From assembly GCA_049317385.1 (NCBI GenBank), contig JBMOIJ010000004.1:45591-109590 (forward strand): a stretch of 64,000 bases of DNA, in the 5' to 3' direction. This document shows, piece by piece, positions 2,722-63,712 of this stretch (the first letter of the stretch is position 1; the number at the start of each line of letters is the position of its first letter). The stretch is from Acidimicrobiia bacterium. Lineage in GTDB: Bacteria > Actinomycetota > Acidimicrobiia > IMCC26256 > JBMOIJ01. A program made the position numbers and the translations under genes. The notes beneath the pieces are model-generated. The model worked only from the letters and a program-made list of their open reading frames with translations. It had not been told where the DNA came from and searched no databases.

Positions 2722-2798
<77 letters not shown>

Positions 2799-6672: not shown

Positions 6673-8685
6673 TCAGCGGTTCTGGGCGGCCCGGTTGTCG
6701 CGGGCTGCGGAGACCAACAACGGCAACGTCTGGCGGGCCAACCATTGACCGCCGTCGCGCGAGAAATGAAAACCGTCGGGCCGAACGATCACATCGCCGA
6801 CGATCCGGGTGCAGTTGGCATCGGGGCACAGGAATCCATCGAGGTCCATGAGGCCGACCTTGGGCTGTTCGGACTGCACCGCAACGTGGACCTGATTCAC
6901 ACACTCCACGCGCCGGTTCGCCGTCGTTGCGTTGCGTGCGGGCGTCACGTGCGGGAACGTGCCGAGGAGCACTTTGGCGCCCCCACGACCCAATTGGTCG
7001 AACGCCGGTGGGAGCACGGAGCGATACCAGTCCGCCCACGTGGGGCTGCACGAGTCCACCCAATCACCGCCGATCTGCCATTCCGAGAGCGGTGCCCGTC
7101 CGCCTAACAACAGGACGACGAGGTCGGGATCGAATTTGGTGAGGATGGTCGCCCAGTCCGTGTCGCACGCGTCGGGTGCGAACACCGACCGCGATCCGTC
7201 GAAGTTGGGTGAGCGCAAGCTGTCGAGGCCGGTGGTGAGCACGCATCCCACGCGTGAGGCGTTGAGTACTTCGGCGCCGAACTCGCCGGCCACGTCTTCC
7301 ATGCCGACGCCGAGCGACCAGGCAACCGAATCTCCGACCAACAAGATGCGTGGGGGCCGAGCAGCGGCCGCGATGCGCGCGTCTTCGAGGACCTTCAGTC
7401 GCTGCTGGGTCTCGGCCGCCGAAGTTGCGCCGTCTTTGGGCAATGAAACGCTTTCGGCGTTGGCCCGGGCAGGGGAGCCGGCCGTGGTGGTGACCAACAC
7501 CATCACCGCCACCACCACGAACGCCACGCCAGGAGTTGCGACGCGCGCTACCCAACCGTGCAACGCGCCGTGGCGAATGGGGCTCTCGATCAAGAAATAG
7601 CTCGCCAACGCCAAGATGAGGCTCGCGCCGATGCGCACTGCAGTGAGGCCCCACCCGTCGAAGCCCATGCGGCTTTCGGTGAGTACTGCGTACACGGGCC
7701 AGTGCCACAGGTAGAGGCCGTACGAGATCAGGCCGAGACCCACCAACGGCGGAATGGCTAGGGCGCGAGCCAGGGGACCGCGCTCGGGGTGAGCGATTGC
7801 CAGGATGACGAGGCCGACCAACAGTCCCAGGCCTGCGAGCGCAGCATCGGAGTAGAGGGCGCGCGTCGAGAATTCCACCACGGACCACGAGGCGGCGAGT
7901 GTGACGATGGCGATGATTGCTAGCACTTCGATCGTGATACGTGCCTTTTGCGATGGCACATGGCCCCGCCATGCCACCCAGGCCGCCAACGCAGCACCCA
8001 TCAACAACGCGGGGGCGCGCGTGTCGGTCCCGTAGTAGAGGCGGTCGGTCGTTGCGCCGCTCCGGGCCAGGAACACTGTCCATGCGATTGCGACCAACGC
8101 GGCGCCGGCACAGGACCAGAAAACCGTCCGAGCGGCATGCAGTTTCCGGCGCAGCGCAACGGCCGCAATTCCGAACACCATGAGCGGCCAGAGCATGTAG
8201 AACTGTTCTTCGATCGCCAACGACCATGTGTGTTGCAACGGCGACGGTGCGCTGAACAGATCGCTATAGGAACTCGAAGTGAAGATCGAGTGCCAGTTCG
8301 CAACGTAGGCGACTGTGGCGAAGGCGTCGCCACGGATGCGTGTCATCTCGCTGCGCTCGGCGAAGATGTAGGCGTACGCCGCCGCGCCGAGGATCACCAA
8401 GAAGAGTGCCGGTAACAGTCGACGCGCCCGGCGCGCCCAGAACGCACCCAACGCCACGCCACCGGTTCGGCTGACTTCAGCGAGCAAGAGCCCCGTGATG
8501 AGGAAGCCCGAGAGCACGAAGAACGCGTCGACGCCCAGGTACCCACCGGCGAGATTGCCGGAGTGGAACAGCAAGACGCCCAGAACGGCCAGCCCCCGCA
8601 GCCCATCGAGGGCCGTGATCCGTCTGGTGGTGTCGTGTTGCAATGCCGGCTCCTGAACTGGGCCGCAGTATTCGGTGCCGATCAT
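6673..8685 (-). CDS. acyltransferase family 3 (OafA-like) with C-terminal SGNH/GDSL domain
   Basis: ALDGLRGLAVLGVLLFH acyltransferase_3 N-terminus, about 10 TM segments, and C-terminal LLVGDSVAWSLG (GDS motif). ATG 8685 overlaps the upstream stop (ATGA). The 164-codon extension in the track was rejected. Confidence 0.88.
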   Translation of the reverse strand: MIGTEYCGPVQEPALQHDTTRRITALDGLRGLAVLGVLLFHSGNLAGGYLGVDAFFVLSGFLITGLLLAEVSRTGGVALGAFWARRARRLLPALFLVILGAAAYAYIFAERSEMTRIRGDAFATVAYVANWHSIFTSSSYSDLFSAPSPLQHTWSLAIEEQFYMLWPLMVFGIAAVALRRKLHAARTVFWSCAGAALVAIAWTVFLARSGATTDRLYYGTDTRAPALLMGAALAAWVAWRGHVPSQKARITIEVLAIIAIVTLAASWSVVEFSTRALYSDAALAGLGLLVGLVILAIAHPERGPLARALAIPPLVGLGLISYGLYLWHWPVYAVLTESRMGFDGWGLTAVRIGASLILALASYFLIESPIRHGALHGWVARVATPGVAFVVVAVMVLVTTTAGSPARANAESVSLPKDGATSAAETQQRLKVLEDARIAAAARPPRILLVGDSVAWSLGVGMEDVAGEFGAEVLNASRVGCVLTTGLDSLRSPNFDGSRSVFAPDACDTDWATILTKFDPDLVVLLLGGRAPLSEWQIGGDWVDSCSPTWADWYRSVLPPAFDQLGRGGAKVLLGTFPHVTPARNATTANRRVECVNQVHVAVQSEQPKVGLMDLDGFLCPDANCTRIVGDVIVRPDGFHFSRDGGQWLARQTLPLLVSAARDNRAAQNR

Positions 8686-10055
8686 CTCGGCGGACTCATC
8701 GCTCCAGTGAAGCCGAACTGCCCGCTTCTTAGTCGTCGGCTCAACGCCACTGCTCCGGTGGCGGCTGCCACCAGGAGCGCCGGCTCGGCCGCCACCCGCA
8801 AACGGGTGGAGCCATACGAGATGATCGTCACCAGCGTGACGAGGACGGCCACCGAGCACAAGGGCCAGATTGCCCGTCGCTGACGGCGTAGCGCCACCAG
8901 ACCAGGCCCGGCGAGCAGCACGAAGCCGAAGAACATGACGTAGCCGACCGACTGCCAGAACCGATCGCGACCTTCTTTGGCATCGAATGCCACTTGGTTG
9001 CGGGGATCCCACAGCCCCCAGGTGCGCGCGAGCCGGACGGCAACGACGCGTGGCAACTCGCCCTTGTGGTCGGAGATGTAATCGGTGCCCACCTTCGACC
9101 ACCGGCGGTAGGCCTGGGCCTCGCTGGTGCCGCTGCCGATACTCGAGTCGGTGAGCGCGGCCGCCACCAAGATGCACTCGAAGCTCCAGCTCCCGAGATC
9201 CTTGCCGCCGAAGTACGTGCGGTCACAGTTGGAGCCCGGCATCACCGAGCCGGCGTTGTTCGAAACCGGGATCACCTGATGAAAGGTGACCCAGTTCCGA
9301 ATGGTCCACGGAGTGATGACCAGCGCCGCGGTCACGATGAGTGCCGCCGCGTTGCGCCACCGGTTGGCGCGCACGACGATCAGCGTCGGGAGCCCGATGA
9401 GCAATGCCAACAACATCGCTTCCTGGCGCGTGAGCGCTGCGAGTCCGATGCACGCGCCGATCATGGCGAAGCGCCACCACTTCGGGTTGTCGAGCGCGCA
9501 GTACGTGGTCCACAACGCACTTGCGATGAGAAGCACGTACAACGACTCGGCCATGAACGCGCCATCGATCTGGAACAACAACGGATAGACGGCTGCGAAC
9601 GCTGCGGCCACGATGCCCACGGCGTTGCCCGCAACTCGTCGGCCCAACATGCCGATCACGAACACGGCCGTGGCCCCGATGCCGCACAGAATCGTGGCCT
9701 GGGTGATGCGCGCCTCGACGCCCAGGCGCGCCAGGAGCGACACGATCAATGGCAGGAGCGGTGGGAACTCCGCCGTGGCGATGCGGTCCGGGGGAAACGG
9801 CGGAATCTGCGGTGGACGGACGTACCCCAACCCCGTCGCCAGGTTGTTCCCTAGCCAGTGGTACGTGAGGCCGTCGCCGACACCGAACAGGTGTGGAGCC
9901 ACCAACCGTGCGAAGGCAATGCGGATCGCGAGGCCAACGAGCGCAATGACCCCGATGATGACCACTGCCCGCCGGCTCGACGCACCGTCCGCCGAGACAG
10001 TGTTGCTCGGCGATGGAGTCGGGGCGGTCGCAGCGGGGGCCGCCGTGGTCGTCAT
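8682..10055 (-). CDS. GT-C fold glycosyltransferase (ArnT/PMT-like, family 39/83 type)
   Basis: Multi-pass membrane protein with an N-terminal loop FGVGDGLTYHWLGNNLATGLGY. It is translationally coupled to the AT3 gene. The start was taken at ATG 10055. Confidence 0.8.
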   Translation of the reverse strand: MTTTAAPAATAPTPSPSNTVSADGASSRRAVVIIGVIALVGLAIRIAFARLVAPHLFGVGDGLTYHWLGNNLATGLGYVRPPQIPPFPPDRIATAEFPPLLPLIVSLLARLGVEARITQATILCGIGATAVFVIGMLGRRVAGNAVGIVAAAFAAVYPLLFQIDGAFMAESLYVLLIASALWTTYCALDNPKWWRFAMIGACIGLAALTRQEAMLLALLIGLPTLIVVRANRWRNAAALIVTAALVITPWTIRNWVTFHQVIPVSNNAGSVMPGSNCDRTYFGGKDLGSWSFECILVAAALTDSSIGSGTSEAQAYRRWSKVGTDYISDHKGELPRVVAVRLARTWGLWDPRNQVAFDAKEGRDRFWQSVGYVMFFGFVLLAGPGLVALRRQRRAIWPLCSVAVLVTLVTIISYGSTRLRVAAEPALLVAAATGAVALSRRLRSGQFGFTGAMSPPR

Positions 10056-41547: not shown

Positions 41548-41619
41548 CTGTCACACCGTCCCCGTAGGGTCGGTTCTGCCTCCTCACCGTCCGGCTGCGC
41601 CCGGTGTTCGGAGGTACCA

Positions 41620-42033
41620 GTGCACGATCCCATTGCCCATCCCCACGCGCTCGAGACGTTCGACGACGCGGTCGAGCTCGCGTGCTGTCTCGCCGACGGC
41701 ATGGAGCCGCCGGCGCCGGCGTGCGTCGTGGTGCTCGACGACCGGCGACGCCCCACCGGCTCGGTATTGGTCGTCGACTGCGACGACGCGCTCGTTCCGC
41801 TGCTCGAACTCGCCGCCACGGTGGTCGGTCCGGTTGCGCCGCTCACGTTCCTCGTGGTCTCGATGCACGACGGCGGTTCGGCCTGCGATCCCGATGATGT
41901 CTTCGAGTGGGAAGAAGCGCACGGTGCCGTGGCCGCAGCGGGAGCCGAGCTGCTCGACTGGCTGGTGGTCACCGAGCGTTCGGTGTTCTCCAAGGCGCGC
42001 CACGCACCCACGCCGGGGCTGGTGCGTTGGTGA
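41620..42033 (+). CDS. hypothetical protein (137 aa)
   Basis: GGAGG RBS 6 nt before GTG 41620 and coding-like composition. It may be a degenerate RadC/JAB-like fold (weak). Confidence 0.6.
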   Translation: MHDPIAHPHALETFDDAVELACCLADGMEPPAPACVVVLDDRRRPTGSVLVVDCDDALVPLLELAATVVGPVAPLTFLVVSMHDGGSACDPDDVFEWEEAHGAVAAAGAELLDWLVVTERSVFSKARHAPTPGLVRW

Positions 42034-56990: not shown

Positions 56991-57051
56991 GCGAAAAACA
57001 GCGAAAAAACCCGAGAAAATCCGTGTTCCGGCAATGCACCAGGCATACGAT
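56991..57051 (+). promoter_or_regulatory. phased A-tracts (UP-element-like) plus candidate -10 upstream of the HU gene
   Basis: gcgaaaaaca|gcgaaaaaac|ccgagaaaat gives A-tracts at an exact 10-bp period (56991-57020). TACGAT (TANNNT) lies at 57046-57051, 44 nt upstream of the GTG start. Confidence 0.4.
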
Positions 57052-57094
57052 GCCGCCTCGTTCCAAAGAACAAACACCTGTGTTGGAGGACCAC

Positions 57095-57589
57095 GTGACG
57101 GTTACCCGAAGCCAGCTGGTGCGCGAAATCGCCGAGCGCGCCGACATCGACCGCAAGGCAGCAGACGAAGCCCTGCGTCATTTCGAGCAGGTCGTGAAGG
57201 AGAACGTGAACAAGGGTGAGAACGTGGTTCTCTCCGGGTTCCTGAAGTTCTCGCGGCGTGCCACCCCGGCCCGTCCGGCTCGCAAGGGCGTCAACCCGTT
57301 CACGGGCGAGATGACGACCTTCAAGGCGAAGCCCGCTTCGAAGGCTCCGCGTGTCACCGCGTTGAAGGCGTTCAAGGACACCATCTCGTCGGGCAAGGTG
57401 CCGAAGCTCGCCGCCAAGCCGGCTGCGAAGAAGACCGCTAAGAAGGCGGCGGCCAAGAAGACGGCGAAGAAGGCCACCGCCAAGCGTGCGGCCAAGAAGA
57501 CCACCGCCAAGCGCGCGCCGGCTCGCAAGGTTGCGGCCAAGCGTCCCGCCGCCAAGAAGACGGCGAAGAAGGCCACGCGTCGTCGTTGA
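57095..57589 (+). CDS. hupB: HU/histone-like DNA-binding protein with Lys/Ala-rich C-terminal tail
   Basis: HU fold (VVLSGFLKFSRRATPARPARKGVNPFTGE) followed by AAKKTAKKA repeats. There is a GGAGGA RBS before GTG 57095. Confidence 0.9.
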   Translation: MTVTRSQLVREIAERADIDRKAADEALRHFEQVVKENVNKGENVVLSGFLKFSRRATPARPARKGVNPFTGEMTTFKAKPASKAPRVTALKAFKDTISSGKVPKLAAKPAAKKTAKKAAAKKTAKKATAKRAAKKTTAKRAPARKVAAKRPAAKKTAKKATRRR

Positions 57590-58814: not shown

Positions 58815-60029
58815 GTGACGGACTTCTCGCTCGAGCTGAACGAGGACCAGCTCCAGATCACCAAGTGGGTCCATGACTTCGCAGAGGACATTGTGCGGCC
58901 GGCCGCGCACGAATGGGACGAGCGGGAAGAGACGCCATGGCCCATCATCGAAGAGGCCGCCAAGATCGGTCTCTATTCGTGGGACTTCCTGGCGCAGGCG
59001 TTCGCCGACCCCACCGGACTGATGCTCGCGCTCGTGAGCGAAGAGTTGTTCTGGGGTGACGCTGGCATTGGTCTCTCCATCTTCGGGAGCGCGCTGGCCG
59101 TCACCGGCATCGTGGGCAACGGCACGCCCGAACAGGTGGGCGAGTGGGTGCCGCAGTGTTACGGCACCCCCGACAAGGTGCAGCTCGGCGCGTTCTGTGT
59201 GAGCGAACCCGACGCCGGCTCCGACGTGTCGTCGTTGCGCACGCGCGCGGTCTACGACGAAACGAAAGACGAGTGGGTGCTGAACGGCACCAAGACCTGG
59301 ATCACCAACGGTGGTATCGCCGACGTACACGTCGTGGTCGCCGCCGTCGACCCCGAACTGAAGTCACGCGGTCACGCGAGCTTCGTAGTTCCGCCGAACA
59401 CGCCGGGCCTGTCACAGGGCCAGAAGTTCAAGAAGATGGGCATTCGCGCGTCGCACACCGCCGAAGTGGTACTCGACGACGTGCGCGTACCTGGTTCGTG
59501 TCTGCTCGGTGGCAAAGAGAAGCTCGACGAGCGTCTCGCCCGCGTGCGCGAGGGCAAGAGTTCCAAGACGCAGGCGGCGATGAGTACGTTCGAGGCGTCC
59601 CGTCCACTGGTGGGCGCGCAGGCCGTCGGCATTGCGCGTGCGGCGTACGAGTACGCGCTCGAGTACGCGAAGGAACGGCGCGCGTTCGGTCGGGCCATCA
59701 TCGAGAACCAGGGCATCAGCTTCAAGCTCGCCGACATGCGCATGGAGATCGACGCTGCTCGCCTGCTCGTGTGGCGGGCGTGTTGGATGGCGCGCACCGG
59801 GAAGAAGTTCGAAGCCGGTGAAGGTTCGATGAGTAAGCTGAAGGCCGGCGAAGTGGCCATGAAGGTCACCGAGGAAGCGATCCAGATCCTCGGTGGGTAC
59901 GGCTACGTGCGCGAGTACCCGGTGGAACGCTGGCACCGCGACGCGAAGATCTACACGATCTTCGAAGGCACCTCCGAGATCCAGCGGCTCGTGGTCGCCC
60001 GTGCGGTGAGCGGCCTCCACCTGCCGTAA
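58815..60029 (+). CDS. acyl-CoA dehydrogenase
   Basis: ACAD layout ([31 protein letters not shown]). There is an AAGGAGAG RBS before GTG 58815. Confidence 0.92.
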
Positions 60030-60042
60030 CCCCTCCACCCTT

Positions 60043-60096
60043 CCCTTTTGGCGCGCGATGGGGTGCGTTCCTGCCCCCGTCCGCGCGCCAAAAGGG
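60043..60096. terminator. 15-bp perfect inverted repeat with a 24-nt spacer
   Basis: cccttttggcgcgcg (60043-60057) and cgcgcgccaaaaggg (60082-60096), starting 14 nt after the ACAD stop. The function (terminator or protein-binding site) is unresolved. Confidence 0.45.
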
Positions 60097-60267
60097 CAGG
60101 TGAAGGTAACGAACGGGCGAACGGCGGGCAGCCGGTCGTGGCCCGGTCGAACAAGTCGTGAACCGGTACGGGTGTTCTCGGCGAACTCGGGTGCACGGCG
60201 CACAAGTCTTGGTCACGATGCCTCCGTGGGGCGGCGCGGGAGTGCTCTGGACGGCGATGTCGTCGCA

Positions 60268-62931
60268 ATGGGCGACGACGGCAATTTCGACCGCGTGCAG
60301 CGTTGGTGGTTCGCGCAGCGTGAACTTCGCCCGGGCAAGCTGATCAGCGCCGTCGTGGCCGCTGCCAGGCGGGGAGTGGTCATCGCCGCGCCCTTCATGC
60401 AACGGCGCGAACTCGACGTACTGCTCCGGGCGGTCGACCCGTCGGTACGGGTCAGTGTCATCACCAACTGGAACGAAGCGGCGCTGCGCAATGGTGCCAC
60501 CGATCCCACGGTGTACGAGCTGTTGCGCAACCGTCCGAACACGACACTCGCGCACAACCCGTGGCTGCACGCGAAGTACTACCGCGGTGACGGTGTGGTC
60601 GCGACCGGCTCGGCCAACCTCACCCGTGCCGGTTTCGGCAGTGGTTTTGGAACCGACAACCTCGAGTCCATCGTTCCCATCTCGTTCGATACGCCGTACG
60701 CGCAGCAACTCGAAGCAGCCGTGCATTTCGCTGCCCCAATCTCCGAGGAGCAGTACCAATGGGCGCTTGCGACATTTCGTGAGCACGCGCTCGAAGCTGG
60801 TACCGCGCCCCTCGACCCGAGCCTGGTTTCCATCTGGGATCACCAGAAAGAAGCGCTGGATGCGCTCGAAGCCACGCGCCTCTTCGGGCAGGACCGCGGG
60901 TTGGTGGTCATGGCGACCGGCACCGGCAAGACCTACACCGCCGCGCTCGATGCGGCGCGGGTTGCAGGCGACGGTCGGGTGCTCTTCATCGCGCACCAGC
61001 GCGAGATCCTCGAGCAGGCGGCAACGACCTTTGCGGCCGCGCTCGACGATCCGTCGGTCGCCTGGTTCGTCGGTCGGCGGAGTGCGGAGGGGATCGAATC
61101 GGCGCAGGTCGTGTTCGCAACGTGGGGCCGCTTCGAGGCGTTCCGACGGAAGTTCGGCCACGAGCCGTTTGCGCCCGACGCGTTCGACTACGTGGTGGTT
61201 GACGAAGCGCACCACGCACCGGCGCCCACGCACGCGCGCACGATCGAAGGACTCGATCCGCGCTTCATGCTCGCGCTCACCGCCACGCCCGACCGGCTCG
61301 ACGATGGCGGCGTCGAGCGAAGTGGCGACGGCAAGGTCGAATCACTCTTCGGCGCCCCGGTGTACGAGCTGGCGCTCGAGGACGCGCTGGCGCGCGGGAT
61401 CCTCGCGCCCGTCGACTACCGGCTCATCGCCGACGACCTCGACGCGCAGCTCGCCGAGATGGCCATCACCGAACAGTGGTCGAAGGAGCGCCTGAACCGC
61501 GACCTCTTCGTGCCGCGTCACGATGCCGAGGTTGCACGGATCATCGGAGATCATGCGCAGGAACTCGGAAACCCGCGCAGCATCGTCTTCTGTTCGTCGA
61601 TCGACCATGCCAACGCAATGGCGGCGCAGCTGCCGGGCGCAGAGGCGTTGCACTCGATGCTTCCCAAGCGCGTCCGCGAGGACATAGTCGACCGATTCCG
61701 GTCGGGCGAGTTGGCGACCGTCGTCACGATCGACCTCTTCAATGAAGGTATCGACGTGCCCGAGGTCGACCTCGTGGTGTTCCTGCGGTCCACTGCGTCG
61801 AAACGCATCTGGCTCCAACAGCTCGGTCGTGGGCTGCGCAAGACCGACCACAAGGCGGGCGTGCGGGTACTCGATTTCACGGCCAGCGTGGAGCGCATCC
61901 GGGAAGTGGATGCCGTTCGCCGGAATTTCGCAACCGCGCGCCAGCGCGCTGGGTCCGAACCCGAACGCCGCGCGACCTTGCGCCTCGACACGAGCCGCAT
62001 CGAGTTCACGGAACACGCGTTGGCAATCGTCGATGCGCTGCATCGCATGGAGACGGCGCGTCGCGAGCCGCGCGACTTGACCGAAGCGATTGCGGGTCTC
62101 TACGAATGGGCGCGCGAGCACCACATGGTCGATGGCCACCGTTACACCGACGCCGATCGAGAACGCTGGTATCCCTCGGCTGCGCATATCAGTGCCGCGT
62201 GCAACGCGGGGTACACGTGGGGTCCGCGTCGGTGGATCGCCGCAACGGGCGACCGCGGCATCGGTGGCGTGCACGATGCGCTTGGTCTAGCGCCTCGGCC
62301 CGAGCGACGCGACATCGAAACCATCGAAGACGCCGTCGAAGGGCTCTACGAATGGGCCGCGGAACACCTACTCATCGACAGTGTTCCATTCACTGATGCC
62401 GACCGTGCGCACTGGGCGCCAATGGCCCGGGAAGTGGCCGCCGCCAGCCGTGCCGGCTACACGTGGAGCCTGCCGAAGTGGTTCGGCGTGCTCGGCGACA
62501 CGGGTTTGGGAGCGTTGCACGCGGCTATTGGTGTTCGGCCGTCTCGGATCAAGACGATGACGCAGGCAGTCGAGGGGATCTACGAGTGGGCGGCGATGCA
62601 TGTGCGCATCGACGGCAAGGCGTTCAACGATGAGCACCGTCGCACGTGGTACCCAACGGTCCGCCACCTTGCGATGGCCAGCAGCGACCACATGACATGG
62701 AGTCCCACCTCGTGGTTCGCGCACACCGGTGACCAAGGCATCATGGGTGTGCACGCGGCGTTGGGACTTCCCGAGCTCGAGATCCGTCCCGGCCATCGGC
62801 GCATGAACGTGGAAGTGGTCGATGGTGACCGAACGGCCGACCGGTTGATGCAGCGGATGCAATCTGCCCGGTCGGACAATCGTTCGCTCAGCTCTCGGGA
62901 ATCTCGAAACTCACCTGGAGCTTGCCGGTGA
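60268..62931 (+). CDS. HKD (phospholipase-D-type) nuclease domain fused to an SF2 DEAH/ResIII helicase, with a C-terminal triple repeat
   Basis: HKD motif LHAKYYRGDGVVATGSANLT. Helicase motifs are I MATGTGKTYTA, II VVVDEAHHA, III LTATP and VI QQLGRGLR. The start was taken at ATG 60268 (the track ORF begins at 60058). Confidence 0.88.
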   Translation: MGDDGNFDRVQRWWFAQRELRPGKLISAVVAAARRGVVIAAPFMQRRELDVLLRAVDPSVRVSVITNWNEAALRNGATDPTVYELLRNRPNTTLAHNPWLHAKYYRGDGVVATGSANLTRAGFGSGFGTDNLESIVPISFDTPYAQQLEAAVHFAAPISEEQYQWALATFREHALEAGTAPLDPSLVSIWDHQKEALDALEATRLFGQDRGLVVMATGTGKTYTAALDAARVAGDGRVLFIAHQREILEQAATTFAAALDDPSVAWFVGRRSAEGIESAQVVFATWGRFEAFRRKFGHEPFAPDAFDYVVVDEAHHAPAPTHARTIEGLDPRFMLALTATPDRLDDGGVERSGDGKVESLFGAPVYELALEDALARGILAPVDYRLIADDLDAQLAEMAITEQWSKERLNRDLFVPRHDAEVARIIGDHAQELGNPRSIVFCSSIDHANAMAAQLPGAEALHSMLPKRVREDIVDRFRSGELATVVTIDLFNEGIDVPEVDLVVFLRSTASKRIWLQQLGRGLRKTDHKAGVRVLDFTASVERIREVDAVRRNFATARQRAGSEPERRATLRLDTSRIEFTEHALAIVDALHRMETARREPRDLTEAIAGLYEWAREHHMVDGHRYTDADRERWYPSAAHISAACNAGYTWGPRRWIAATGDRGIGGVHDALGLAPRPERRDIETIEDAVEGLYEWAAEHLLIDSVPFTDADRAHWAPMAREVAAASRAGYTWSLPKWFGVLGDTGLGALHAAIGVRPSRIKTMTQAVEGIYEWAAMHVRIDGKAFNDEHRRTWYPTVRHLAMASSDHMTWSPTSWFAHTGDQGIMGVHAALGLPELEIRPGHRRMNVEVVDGDRTADRLMQRMQSARSDNRSLSSRESRNSPGACR
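62083..62796 (+). repeat. three tandem in-frame ~78-82-codon repeats inside the helicase gene
   Basis: The (A/V)xG(L/I)YEWAxxH...D..(F/Y).D..R..W.P......A.....(Y/M)TW....W....GD.G(I/L).(G/A).H.A(L/I)G(L/V) unit starts at 62083, 62329 and 62563, giving periods of 246 and 234 nt. Confidence 0.8.
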
Positions 62932-63712
62932 CCATGGCGCCGAGGAATCCGCCGTCCACGTGAATGGCCTCGCCCGCGACGTACGTCATGTGCGGGCTGT
63001 TGAGGAACACCATCGGCCACGCTTGTTCTTCGGGCAGTGAACGCCGGCCGGACGGCCCAATGAACGCGTCGATGAGGTCCTTGCCGTTCTGCTCTTCGAA
63101 GTACGGCATCATCGCCGTGGTGGTGGGACCCGGGTTCGTGCAGTTGAGGCGAATGCCCTGCGCGATGAGATCGGTGCCCCGGGATGCGACGTACGCGTTG
63201 GTGCACTGCTTCGAAAACGCGTACGCGCTCGCCAACGCAATGGTCTCGGCGTTCGCTTCCACCCACGCCTGCCCTGATTCGAAGTCGGGCGTGTTCACCA
63301 ACGGCATGATGGCTTCGAGATTCTGCTGCCACCCGAGTCCGCCGTTGCTGGCCACGCACACGATGCCGCCACCCGGCGCCATCTTCGGCACCAGCGACTC
63401 GACCAAATGGCGCGCGCCGACGAAGTTGACCGTCATGGTGTCGAGGTCGGAGAACGGCGGCCCGGGCAGACCGGCCACGCTGAACACCGCTTGCACCGGC
63501 CCGTCGATCTTCGAAACCACGTCGTCGATGGAGGCCTTGTCGCGCAGGTCGATGATCATGGATGTGACGCCGGCGAGTTCGGTGGGCTTCACGTCGAGCG
63601 CAATGACGTTCGCGCCCACGTCCACGAGGATCTTCGCCGCCGCCTCGCCCATGCCTGATGCGGCTCCGGTGACCACCACGGTCTTGCCTTCGTAACCCAA
63701 CACGTTGTCCAC
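62888..63712 (-). CDS. short-chain dehydrogenase/reductase (SDR)
   Basis: VVVTGAASGMGEAAA motif and YAFSK (YxxxK). There is a GAGGAG RBS before GTG 63712. Its 3' end overlaps the helicase 3' end by 44 nt. Confidence 0.88.
   Translation of the reverse strand: MDNVLGYEGKTVVVTGAASGMGEAAAKILVDVGANVIALDVKPTELAGVTSMIIDLRDKASIDDVVSKIDGPVQAVFSVAGLPGPPFSDLDTMTVNFVGARHLVESLVPKMAPGGGIVCVASNGGLGWQQNLEAIMPLVNTPDFESGQAWVEANAETIALASAYAFSKQCTNAYVASRGTDLIAQGIRLNCTNPGPTTTAMMPYFEEQNGKDLIDAFIGPSGRRSLPEEQAWPMVFLNSPHMTYVAGEAIHVDGGFLGAMVTGKLQVSFEIPES

Follow-up and report, generated by a model that had tools for sequence, protein, structure and literature searches.

Enzymes that fuse a phospholipase D (PLD) nuclease to a helicase in the manner of SauUSI are major barriers to gene transfer, and the reader at their C-terminus sets their specificity. 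In SauUSI a PLD nuclease, a superfamily 2 (SF2) ATPase, a helical coupler and an SRA-like target-recognition domain (DUF3427) follow one another in that order, the protein dimerises through its PLD domains, and recognition of 5-methylcytosine triggers ATP-driven translocation and cleavage (PMC7913695; PMC3141236; PMC6765204). Here we report on a gene for an 887-residue protein of related anatomy in a 64,000-nucleotide stretch of the Acidimicrobiia contig JBMOIJ010000004.1 (positions 45,591 to 109,590), the whole of which we refer to as the window. The protein is a new combination on a modular chassis, joining a SauUSI-family nuclease and a "repeat-array" motor to a new repeat: its nuclease-motor part is of a known, SauUSI-like kind, and what is new is an undescribed repeat-type C-terminal module carried by a very rare gene. 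Judged by its domain anatomy, it probably acts as an ATP-dependent DNA nuclease-translocase; the fuller proposal, that it is an accessory, lineage-restricted, ATP-dependent SauUSI-type DNA endonuclease-translocase serving restriction-like defence, we consider evenly balanced between holding and failing.

The original prediction for this locus had named an orphan fusion of a single-HKD PLD-type nuclease motif with a complete ResIII/SF2 helicase core and had called for hidden Markov model (HMM) and structure searches; these found the nuclease and helicase folds (Pfam, PADLOC, and AlphaFold 2 (AF2) with Foldseek) and did not find DUF3427. Pfam PLDc_2 covers residues 31-150 (expectation value E = 2e-7; score 31.3 bits, cut-off 27), and the H, K and D residues and the GSxN element of the HKD motif are intact; in alignments the motif lines up with H-x-K and GSSNLS in homologues. 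ResIII (residues 189-343, E = 8e-31) and Helicase_C (residues 431-524, E = 4e-14) were likewise matched above their cut-offs, every helicase motif that had been quoted was located (Table 1), and the residues K221, D312, E313, H315, T338, Q518, G520, R521 and R524 occupy invariant helicase columns. We modelled residues 1-602 with AF2 from a 38-sequence alignment that excluded the repeat proteins, which MAFFT had placed wrongly within the helicase, and obtained a mean predicted local distance difference test score (pLDDT) of 78, with most of the motor at 85-98. The top Foldseek match of this model was SauUSI (7clg_B, E = 1.7e-28), extending over 560 of the 602 columns and through both nuclease and motor; RadD, XPB and the motors of type I and ISP restriction enzymes came next. 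SauUSI (7CLG) was also the best sequence match in the PDB (E = 2.3e-42 over the motor), residues ~17-565 were collinear in BLASTP with many PLD-helicase-DUF3427 proteins at 32-34% identity, and the best PADLOC model was that of a type IV enzyme, mREase_IV (E = 1.3e-52). The epithet "orphan" does not suit the nuclease-helicase chassis, which belongs to a widespread SauUSI-like group.

The likeness to SauUSI extends from an N-terminal single-HKD PLD domain with an intact motif, through an SF2 ATPase bearing motifs I, II, III and VI, to an organisation that needs no cognate methyltransferase. Between nuclease and motor lies an acidic, poorly conserved linker, of which residues 178-185 were modelled with low confidence; SauUSI has a comparable disordered acidic linker at residues 192-220 (PMC7913695). 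The two proteins differ in that identity is only about 30-34%, in that the motor described here is nearer to another clade, and in that its C-terminus is built from an unrelated helical repeat present three times. Other described systems are further removed. NgoAVII, CglI and BfiI share a PLD-family nuclease that dimerises into an active site, and NgoAVII and CglI also have an SF2 motor (PMC7913695), but these two enzymes are multi-subunit, a PLD-B3 R subunit working with a separate SF2 ATPase subunit, BfiI (PLD plus B3) has no motor, and the reader of all three is a B3-like DNA-binding domain. RadD and XPB have the SF2 fold and motif set but no fused PLD nuclease, and their accessory domains are different. 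Similarity to them in NCBIfam, as to EcoAI HsdR and a Dnd-associated restriction enzyme, was far below threshold (105 bits against a cut-off of 720 for RadD, 60 against 610 for XPB). The analogies drawn earlier with DISARM DrmC, Mokosh and NgoFVII/BfiI-type nucleases found no support: no RE_NgoFVII Pfam match was found in the protein, no Mko or Drm model appeared among the best 25 PADLOC matches, and no partner genes flank the gene.

After the orthologue described below, the closest helicase cores (39-45% identity) are those of nuclease-less ResIII/Helicase_C helicases with C-terminal repeat arrays, mostly from metagenomes of the Candidate Phyla Radiation (CPR)/Parcubacteria. These have in common with our protein an insertion of the form 'LNR.IF(V/I)P(R/K)RDEEIA', small modules in tandem at the C-terminus and a post-helicase coupler, which aligns with the coupler found here on the pattern 'L.L....IEF.E..L.I.D.L.R'; they differ in having no PLD domain and in the composition of their arrays, which are built of PHINT_rpt (PF14882), HNH_repeat (PF18780) or DUF4379 (PF14311) units. 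Across the relatives as a whole the C-terminal modules include DUF3427, HNH_repeat, PHINT_rpt and DUF4379 zinc ribbons, and HIT domains also occur, preceding the PLD domain at the N-terminus in the one such protein that was scanned (P0062). Several individual relatives deserve mention: in P0041 the N-terminal nuclease is Mrr_cat (E = 2e-16), and P0035 and P0076 show a sub-threshold match to the restriction endonuclease family MTES_1575 with HNH_repeat further on, so that nuclease-motor-repeat looks like a recurrent architecture. A nuclease-less PHINT_rpt relative on contig L083 has ruvA, polA and the genes for a Mur ligase and an fpg-type Fapy-DNA glycosylase nearby, surroundings that speak of housekeeping rather than defence.

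The C-terminal region had been described from the sequence as three tandem repeats of about 80 residues forming an undescribed module, and both parts of that description stood. The three units are 78-83 residues long, unit 3 shares 45-46% identity with each of the other two, and alignments across repeats were significant (E = 2e-11 and 3e-8). Modelled by AF2 from a 14-sequence alignment, unit 3 folds with confidence as a genuine helical domain (pLDDT 93.9, predicted TM-score 0.80; five helices and a small hairpin). It is rich in Trp, with four conserved Trp residues per unit. In Foldseek searches of this model against the PDB and BFVD all matches had E of 2.7 or more and TM-scores of 0.45 or less, none of 14 repeat units matched Pfam at E <= 10, and no match to the unit was present in the phage and plasmid collections or elsewhere in the window. 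When a three-unit profile was run against 1.84 billion representative proteins, only 10 reached E <= 1e-3: one with five units, one with two, several single-unit proteins of 82-116 residues, and one fusion of several units to an HA domain. Where the source names them, these are "hypothetical proteins", and the three NCBI records that give an organism are from metagenome-assembled genomes (MAGs) of Acidimicrobiia. Comparison by hhalign gave a weak hint of similarity to HNH_repeat units (probability 64% over 28 columns). Two other origins were considered and discarded on the same kind of evidence, namely that the repeats are diverged PHINT_rpt units (probability 1%) and that their source was the initial helical subdomain of the coupler in the DUF3427 family, as a MAFFT placement had hinted (0.4%, against the post-helicase segments of 88 family members).

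Stand-alone versions of the unit were found in four independent contigs as a cluster of small ORFs on one strand, divergent from recA. Three of these contigs (all except L082) extend far enough to reveal the other flank, and there the cluster is also convergent with cinA. L090 has five small ORFs between recA and cinA, of which four are single-unit proteins that score against the repeat HMM (E = 1e-9 to 2e-32), and the clustered ORFs are all annotated as "hypothetical protein". A further protein of 473 residues from an Acidimicrobiia MAG (P0125) joins four to five units to an HA "helicase-associated" domain at its N-terminus (PF03457; E = 4e-5, sub-threshold) and is a second, independent tie of the repeat to helicase-type proteins. 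Because of the clusters beside recA, the fusions to helicase and HA domains and the weak profile similarity to HNH_repeat, we associate the repeat domain with DNA metabolism; as far as sequence context goes, this points to DNA, a DNA structure or a recombination protein as a candidate ligand. We also observed that the recA gene of L082 (1-1976, minus strand), itself from an Acidimicrobiia MAG, carries a LAGLIDADG intein (RecA_N - LAGLIDADG_2 - RecA_N - RecA_C).

Three closely related contigs (the window, L085 and L001) are the only ones in which the gene was seen, each time beside the same short-chain dehydrogenase/reductase (SDR) gene. The full protein forms a singleton cluster, with a sole close relative (P0002, on the JGI contig L001) among 5.8 billion protein clusters; an exact-product look-up of the 887-residue protein yielded no contig on record, scans of metagenome contigs revealed no relative of the C-terminal region or of the full protein, and no plasmid record covers >= 80% of the protein. 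The L001 protein is about 59-61% identical to that of the window and has the same architecture, with the HKD motif (kept as LHSKFYRGDDVAVVGSANVT), the motor, three orthologous repeats and the tail, followed by the SDR gene. An in-frame TAA interrupts it in repeat 1 (1673-1675), where the window protein has Cys, the remaining frame being open; either the mutation is real and makes this copy a pseudogene, or the assembly is at fault here. Contig L085, found via its SDR gene, is 97.7% identical to the window in DNA and holds a partial copy whose last 102 codons are intact, and all five substitutions that separate the two lie in the C-terminal tail. The comparison of neighbourhoods in relatives that had been suggested for this gene showed that it is not conserved housekeeping: it was not found near 80 loci with an orthologue of the flanking acyl-CoA dehydrogenase (ACAD) gene or near 3 loci with an SDR homologue (72% identity) in Acidimicrobiia, a weak negative in that synteny is lost at 70-86% identity. 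The ACAD orthologues of 77-86% identity come nearly all from MAGs of Acidimicrobiia or unclassified Actinomycetota.

The helicases of the window and L001 share 59% identity, and their SDR genes 92%. The non-synonymous divergence (dN) is 0.36 for the helicase gene and 0.044 for the SDR gene, a rate about 8 times faster, and the synonymous divergence (dS) is 1.56 overall and 0.66, respectively. Within the helicase gene dS is ~1.4-2.3 in the segments upstream of repeat 3 and ~0.9 in repeat 3 and the tail, a drop toward the SDR gene that is suggestive of older alleles or of recombination with its breakpoint within the gene. The ratio dN/dS, 0.23 for the whole gene, is 0.13 for the motor, 0.19-0.32 for the repeats and about 0.6 for coupler and tail (tail 0.59); being below 1 everywhere, it indicates that the gene is functional and constrained. 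The gene is accessory, fast-evolving and occasionally lost, a pattern that is typical of defence genes and is no proof of such a role.

In the mechanism that we propose, two protomers would dimerise through their PLD domains to form a composite active site, by analogy with SauUSI, the single-HKD Nuc and BfiI. The C-terminal repeat array would be the target-recognition module, possibly aided by the basic coupler and tail, and binding of the target would turn on ATP hydrolysis; the motor would then translocate along double-stranded DNA, and the PLD dimer would cleave away from the recognition site. The biological role would be a single-gene, type IV-like restriction of foreign DNA for which no methyltransferase is needed. 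Because the SRA/DUF3427 reader of 5-methylcytosine is missing, the recognised signal is not predictable from SauUSI. A more specific suggestion, which we make tentatively and regard as doubtful, is that the Trp-rich helical unit of 78 residues is an undescribed Acidimicrobiia-specific family, native beside recA, that has become a new SauUSI-type reader of a DNA structure, an unusual modification or a complex of DNA with a recombination protein. The original prediction of a surveillance, defence or repair factor is borne out as regards the nuclease-motor anatomy; the defence half is plausible but only something that we infer, and in a housekeeping context. It is the weaker half of our own proposal, and we give a role against foreign DNA slightly less than even credence.

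Several results weigh against this proposal. The mREase_IV match spans the motor only (model positions 214-568 of 945) and is not near full-length; pLDDT falls below 50 in the HKD loop (residues 103-115) and at residues 124-138, and a phmmer search of the isolated N-terminal 189 residues against the PDB gave nothing meaningful. The 5-methylcytosine-reading DUF3427/SRA-like domain of SauUSI is absent, with neither PF11907 nor any other Pfam match in residues 553-887 even at E <= 10, and its helical coupler of ~190 residues is represented here by ~60 residues and two helices. The repeats are mildly acidic (isoelectric point (pI) 5.4-6.0), which is atypical of a non-specific DNA binder. The closest helicase cores come from helicases that have no nuclease, and the L083 relative (8001-9950) lies between rpoD and rnc on a 530-kb CPR contig. 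The gene lies in housekeeping surroundings rather than in a defence island, and all three carriers keep it in synteny. Pfam scans of 18 ORFs (35-64 kb of the window, excluding 43.4-44.8 kb and 50-52.3 kb) turned up no gene for a methyltransferase, an integrase or a defence protein, in line with the earlier statement that no methyltransferase or partner gene is present, and the only tRNA gene of the window (tRNA-Met, CAT, 2722-2798, plus strand) is 57 kb away.

Some of these points would suit a lineage-specific helicase-nuclease of repair or recombination, akin to RadD or XPB-Bax1, that acts on the cell's own damaged or stalled DNA while its repeats dock to recombination intermediates or RecA. 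Such an enzyme would be at home in a housekeeping context conserved in every carrier, its nearest helicase cores lie in CPR housekeeping neighbourhoods, the stand-alone repeat units keep a conserved place beside recA, and RadD and XPB are both strong fold matches and, alongside restriction enzymes, the top NCBIfam similarities. Those NCBIfam scores are nevertheless far under the family cut-offs, and a repair function accords poorly with the extremely narrow distribution of the gene and its absence from the ACAD and SDR homologue loci examined, with a non-synonymous rate ~8 times that of the SDR gene and with the premature stop in one copy. The PLD-helicase fusions that have been characterised are, moreover, restriction enzymes (PMC3141236, PMC7913695). 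On this evidence we find the repair explanation rather unlikely, and restriction-like defence is the reading that we carry forward.

A smaller probability still attaches to the idea that the array is a protein-sensing or autoinhibitory module from which a phage or host protein frees the nuclease-motor, making the protein an effector of the abortive-infection or sensor type. The acidic (pI about 5-6) and Trp-rich character of both the repeats and the stand-alone units fits this idea, as does the finding of no recognisable DNA-binding fold for the repeat domain in the PDB or BFVD, and contacts with DNA could come from the basic coupler and tail. A protein partner has no direct support, however; the same position in related helicases holds modules regarded as nucleic-acid-binding (DUF3427/SRA, zinc ribbons and HNH_repeat), and it is to HNH_repeat that the repeats show their weak profile similarity, so that we think a sensor of this kind unlikely. 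It seems highly improbable that the gene is a relic of some past horizontal acquisition, in decay and no longer functional. The in-frame TAA in L001, the singleton status of the protein in databases and a third-position GC content (GC3) slightly under that of the neighbours would agree with decay, but the window copy is an intact frame of 887 codons with every catalytic motif, dN/dS is as low as 0.23 for the whole gene and 0.13 for the motor, the modelled fold of the repeat unit is confident, and the L085 frame is open over the 102 residues available. Restriction-like defence by a SauUSI-type nuclease-translocase, with the graded strengths given above, thus remains the explanation that we prefer.

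If the reader has indeed been replaced by a compact, confidently folding domain, the protein may possess a new modification- or structure-dependent nuclease specificity and be a potential reagent, with the practical limit that the gene is known from three metagenomic contigs only. The gene also opens a way into an uncharacterised family of domains whose place beside recA is conserved in an abundant, uncultured class of soil bacteria, the Acidimicrobiia, and adds evidence that this clade of helicases is a chassis, freely recombined with various nucleases and readers of the repeat type.

Table 1. Coordinates of the gene, its domains and motifs, the upstream stem-loop and related loci. Positions are those of the window unless a contig is named.
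Feature	Position	Strand	Residues	Remarks
Whole gene, PLD nuclease / SF2 helicase / triple-repeat protein	60268..62931	+	887 aa	stop codon 62929-62931
N-terminal single-HKD phospholipase-D-type nuclease domain	60268..60747	+	1-160	PLDc_2, collinearity, Foldseek
HKD catalytic motif LHAKYYRGDGVVATGSANLT	60565..60624	+	100-119	H101-x-K103-x4-D108, G114-S-A-N117
Acidic, poorly conserved linker	60748..60831	+	161-188	pI 4.4; 21% identity to L001
SF2 helicase-like ATPase core	60832..61887	+	189-540	ResIII, Helicase_C, motifs, pLDDT mostly 85-98
Motif I, ATGTGKT	60913-60933	+	216	
Motif II, DEAH	61201-61212	+	312	
Motif III, TATP	61279-61290	+	338	
Motif VI, QQLGRGLR	61816-61839	+	517	
Short basic coupler	61888..62073	+	541-602	helices 541-560 and 584-599 joined by a disordered loop; pI 11.2
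Repeat unit 1	62074..62322	+	603-685	domain E 9e-27
Repeat unit 2	62323..62556	+	686-763	domain E 6e-26
Repeat unit 3	62557..62793	+	764-842	domain E 1e-29; unit modelled
Basic low-complexity C-terminal tail	62794..62928	+	843-887	pI 11.4, GC3 0.61; partly overlaps SDR gene
Stem-loop in upstream gap	60039..60100	+		perfect 15-bp arms 60043-60057 and 60082-60096; extendable to imperfect 28-nt arms
L001 copy, helicase gene	L001 2-2413			
L001 copy, SDR gene	L001 2373-3197			
Stand-alone unit clusters (2-5 small ORFs)	L090 5267-7351; L091 5276-7351; L082 2219-2853; two ENA contigs			Acidimicrobiia-type genomes

The single ORF of 887 codons that had been reported among metabolic genes was recovered, with the ACAD gene (58815-60029) on one side and the SDR gene (62888-63709, minus strand) as convergent neighbour on the other. 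The 3' ends of the helicase and SDR genes overlap by 44 bp (62888-62931), and the same overlap is present in L001. The frame stays open upstream of the ATG at 60268 as far as an ATG at 60058, which would give 957 residues; GC by codon position is 0.71/0.67/0.66 in 60058-60267, without periodicity, and 0.70/0.49/0.79 in the body of the ORF. Since the upstream segment has no such periodicity, the start at 60268 is reasonable, and an in-frame GTG at 60226 may be an alternative. The GC3 of the gene, 0.79, is slightly lower than that of its neighbours (0.82-0.87).

The 238-bp gap between the ACAD and helicase genes (60030-60267) and the perfect 15-bp inverted repeat that had been noted in it are both present, the repeat forming the arms of a stem-loop that begins 14 nt past the ACAD stop codon (60027-60029). 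Its RNA fold has a predicted energy of -55.6 kcal/mol (z = -7.35), and none of 200 shuffled sequences was equally stable. It matched no Rfam family, has no further copy in the window, and has no T-tail, so that it was missed by a terminator scan that relies on one; hairpin terminators without a tail are common in Actinomycetota. Its position 14 nt after the ACAD stop and the stability of the hairpin make an ACAD terminator the simplest reading, and it was for this reason that we set aside the inverted repeat as a control site for the helicase gene. The stem-loop is probably a transcription terminator of ACAD or a transcript-stabilising hairpin, and as such a feature of the neighbourhood, not necessarily of the helicase gene.

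Further neighbours include genes for HU, a 2-hydroxyacid dehydrogenase, an ATP-binding cassette (ABC) transporter, aldehyde dehydrogenase, MsrA, phosphoglucose isomerase and P450, among others; the ABC permease ORF and the ORF at 41548-42030 had no Pfam match in the neighbourhood scan. The HU-family protein (57050-57589, plus strand; Bac_DNA_binding, E = 6e-19) has a long Lys/Ala-rich C-terminal tail, presumably of the kind known from actinobacterial HupB-like proteins.

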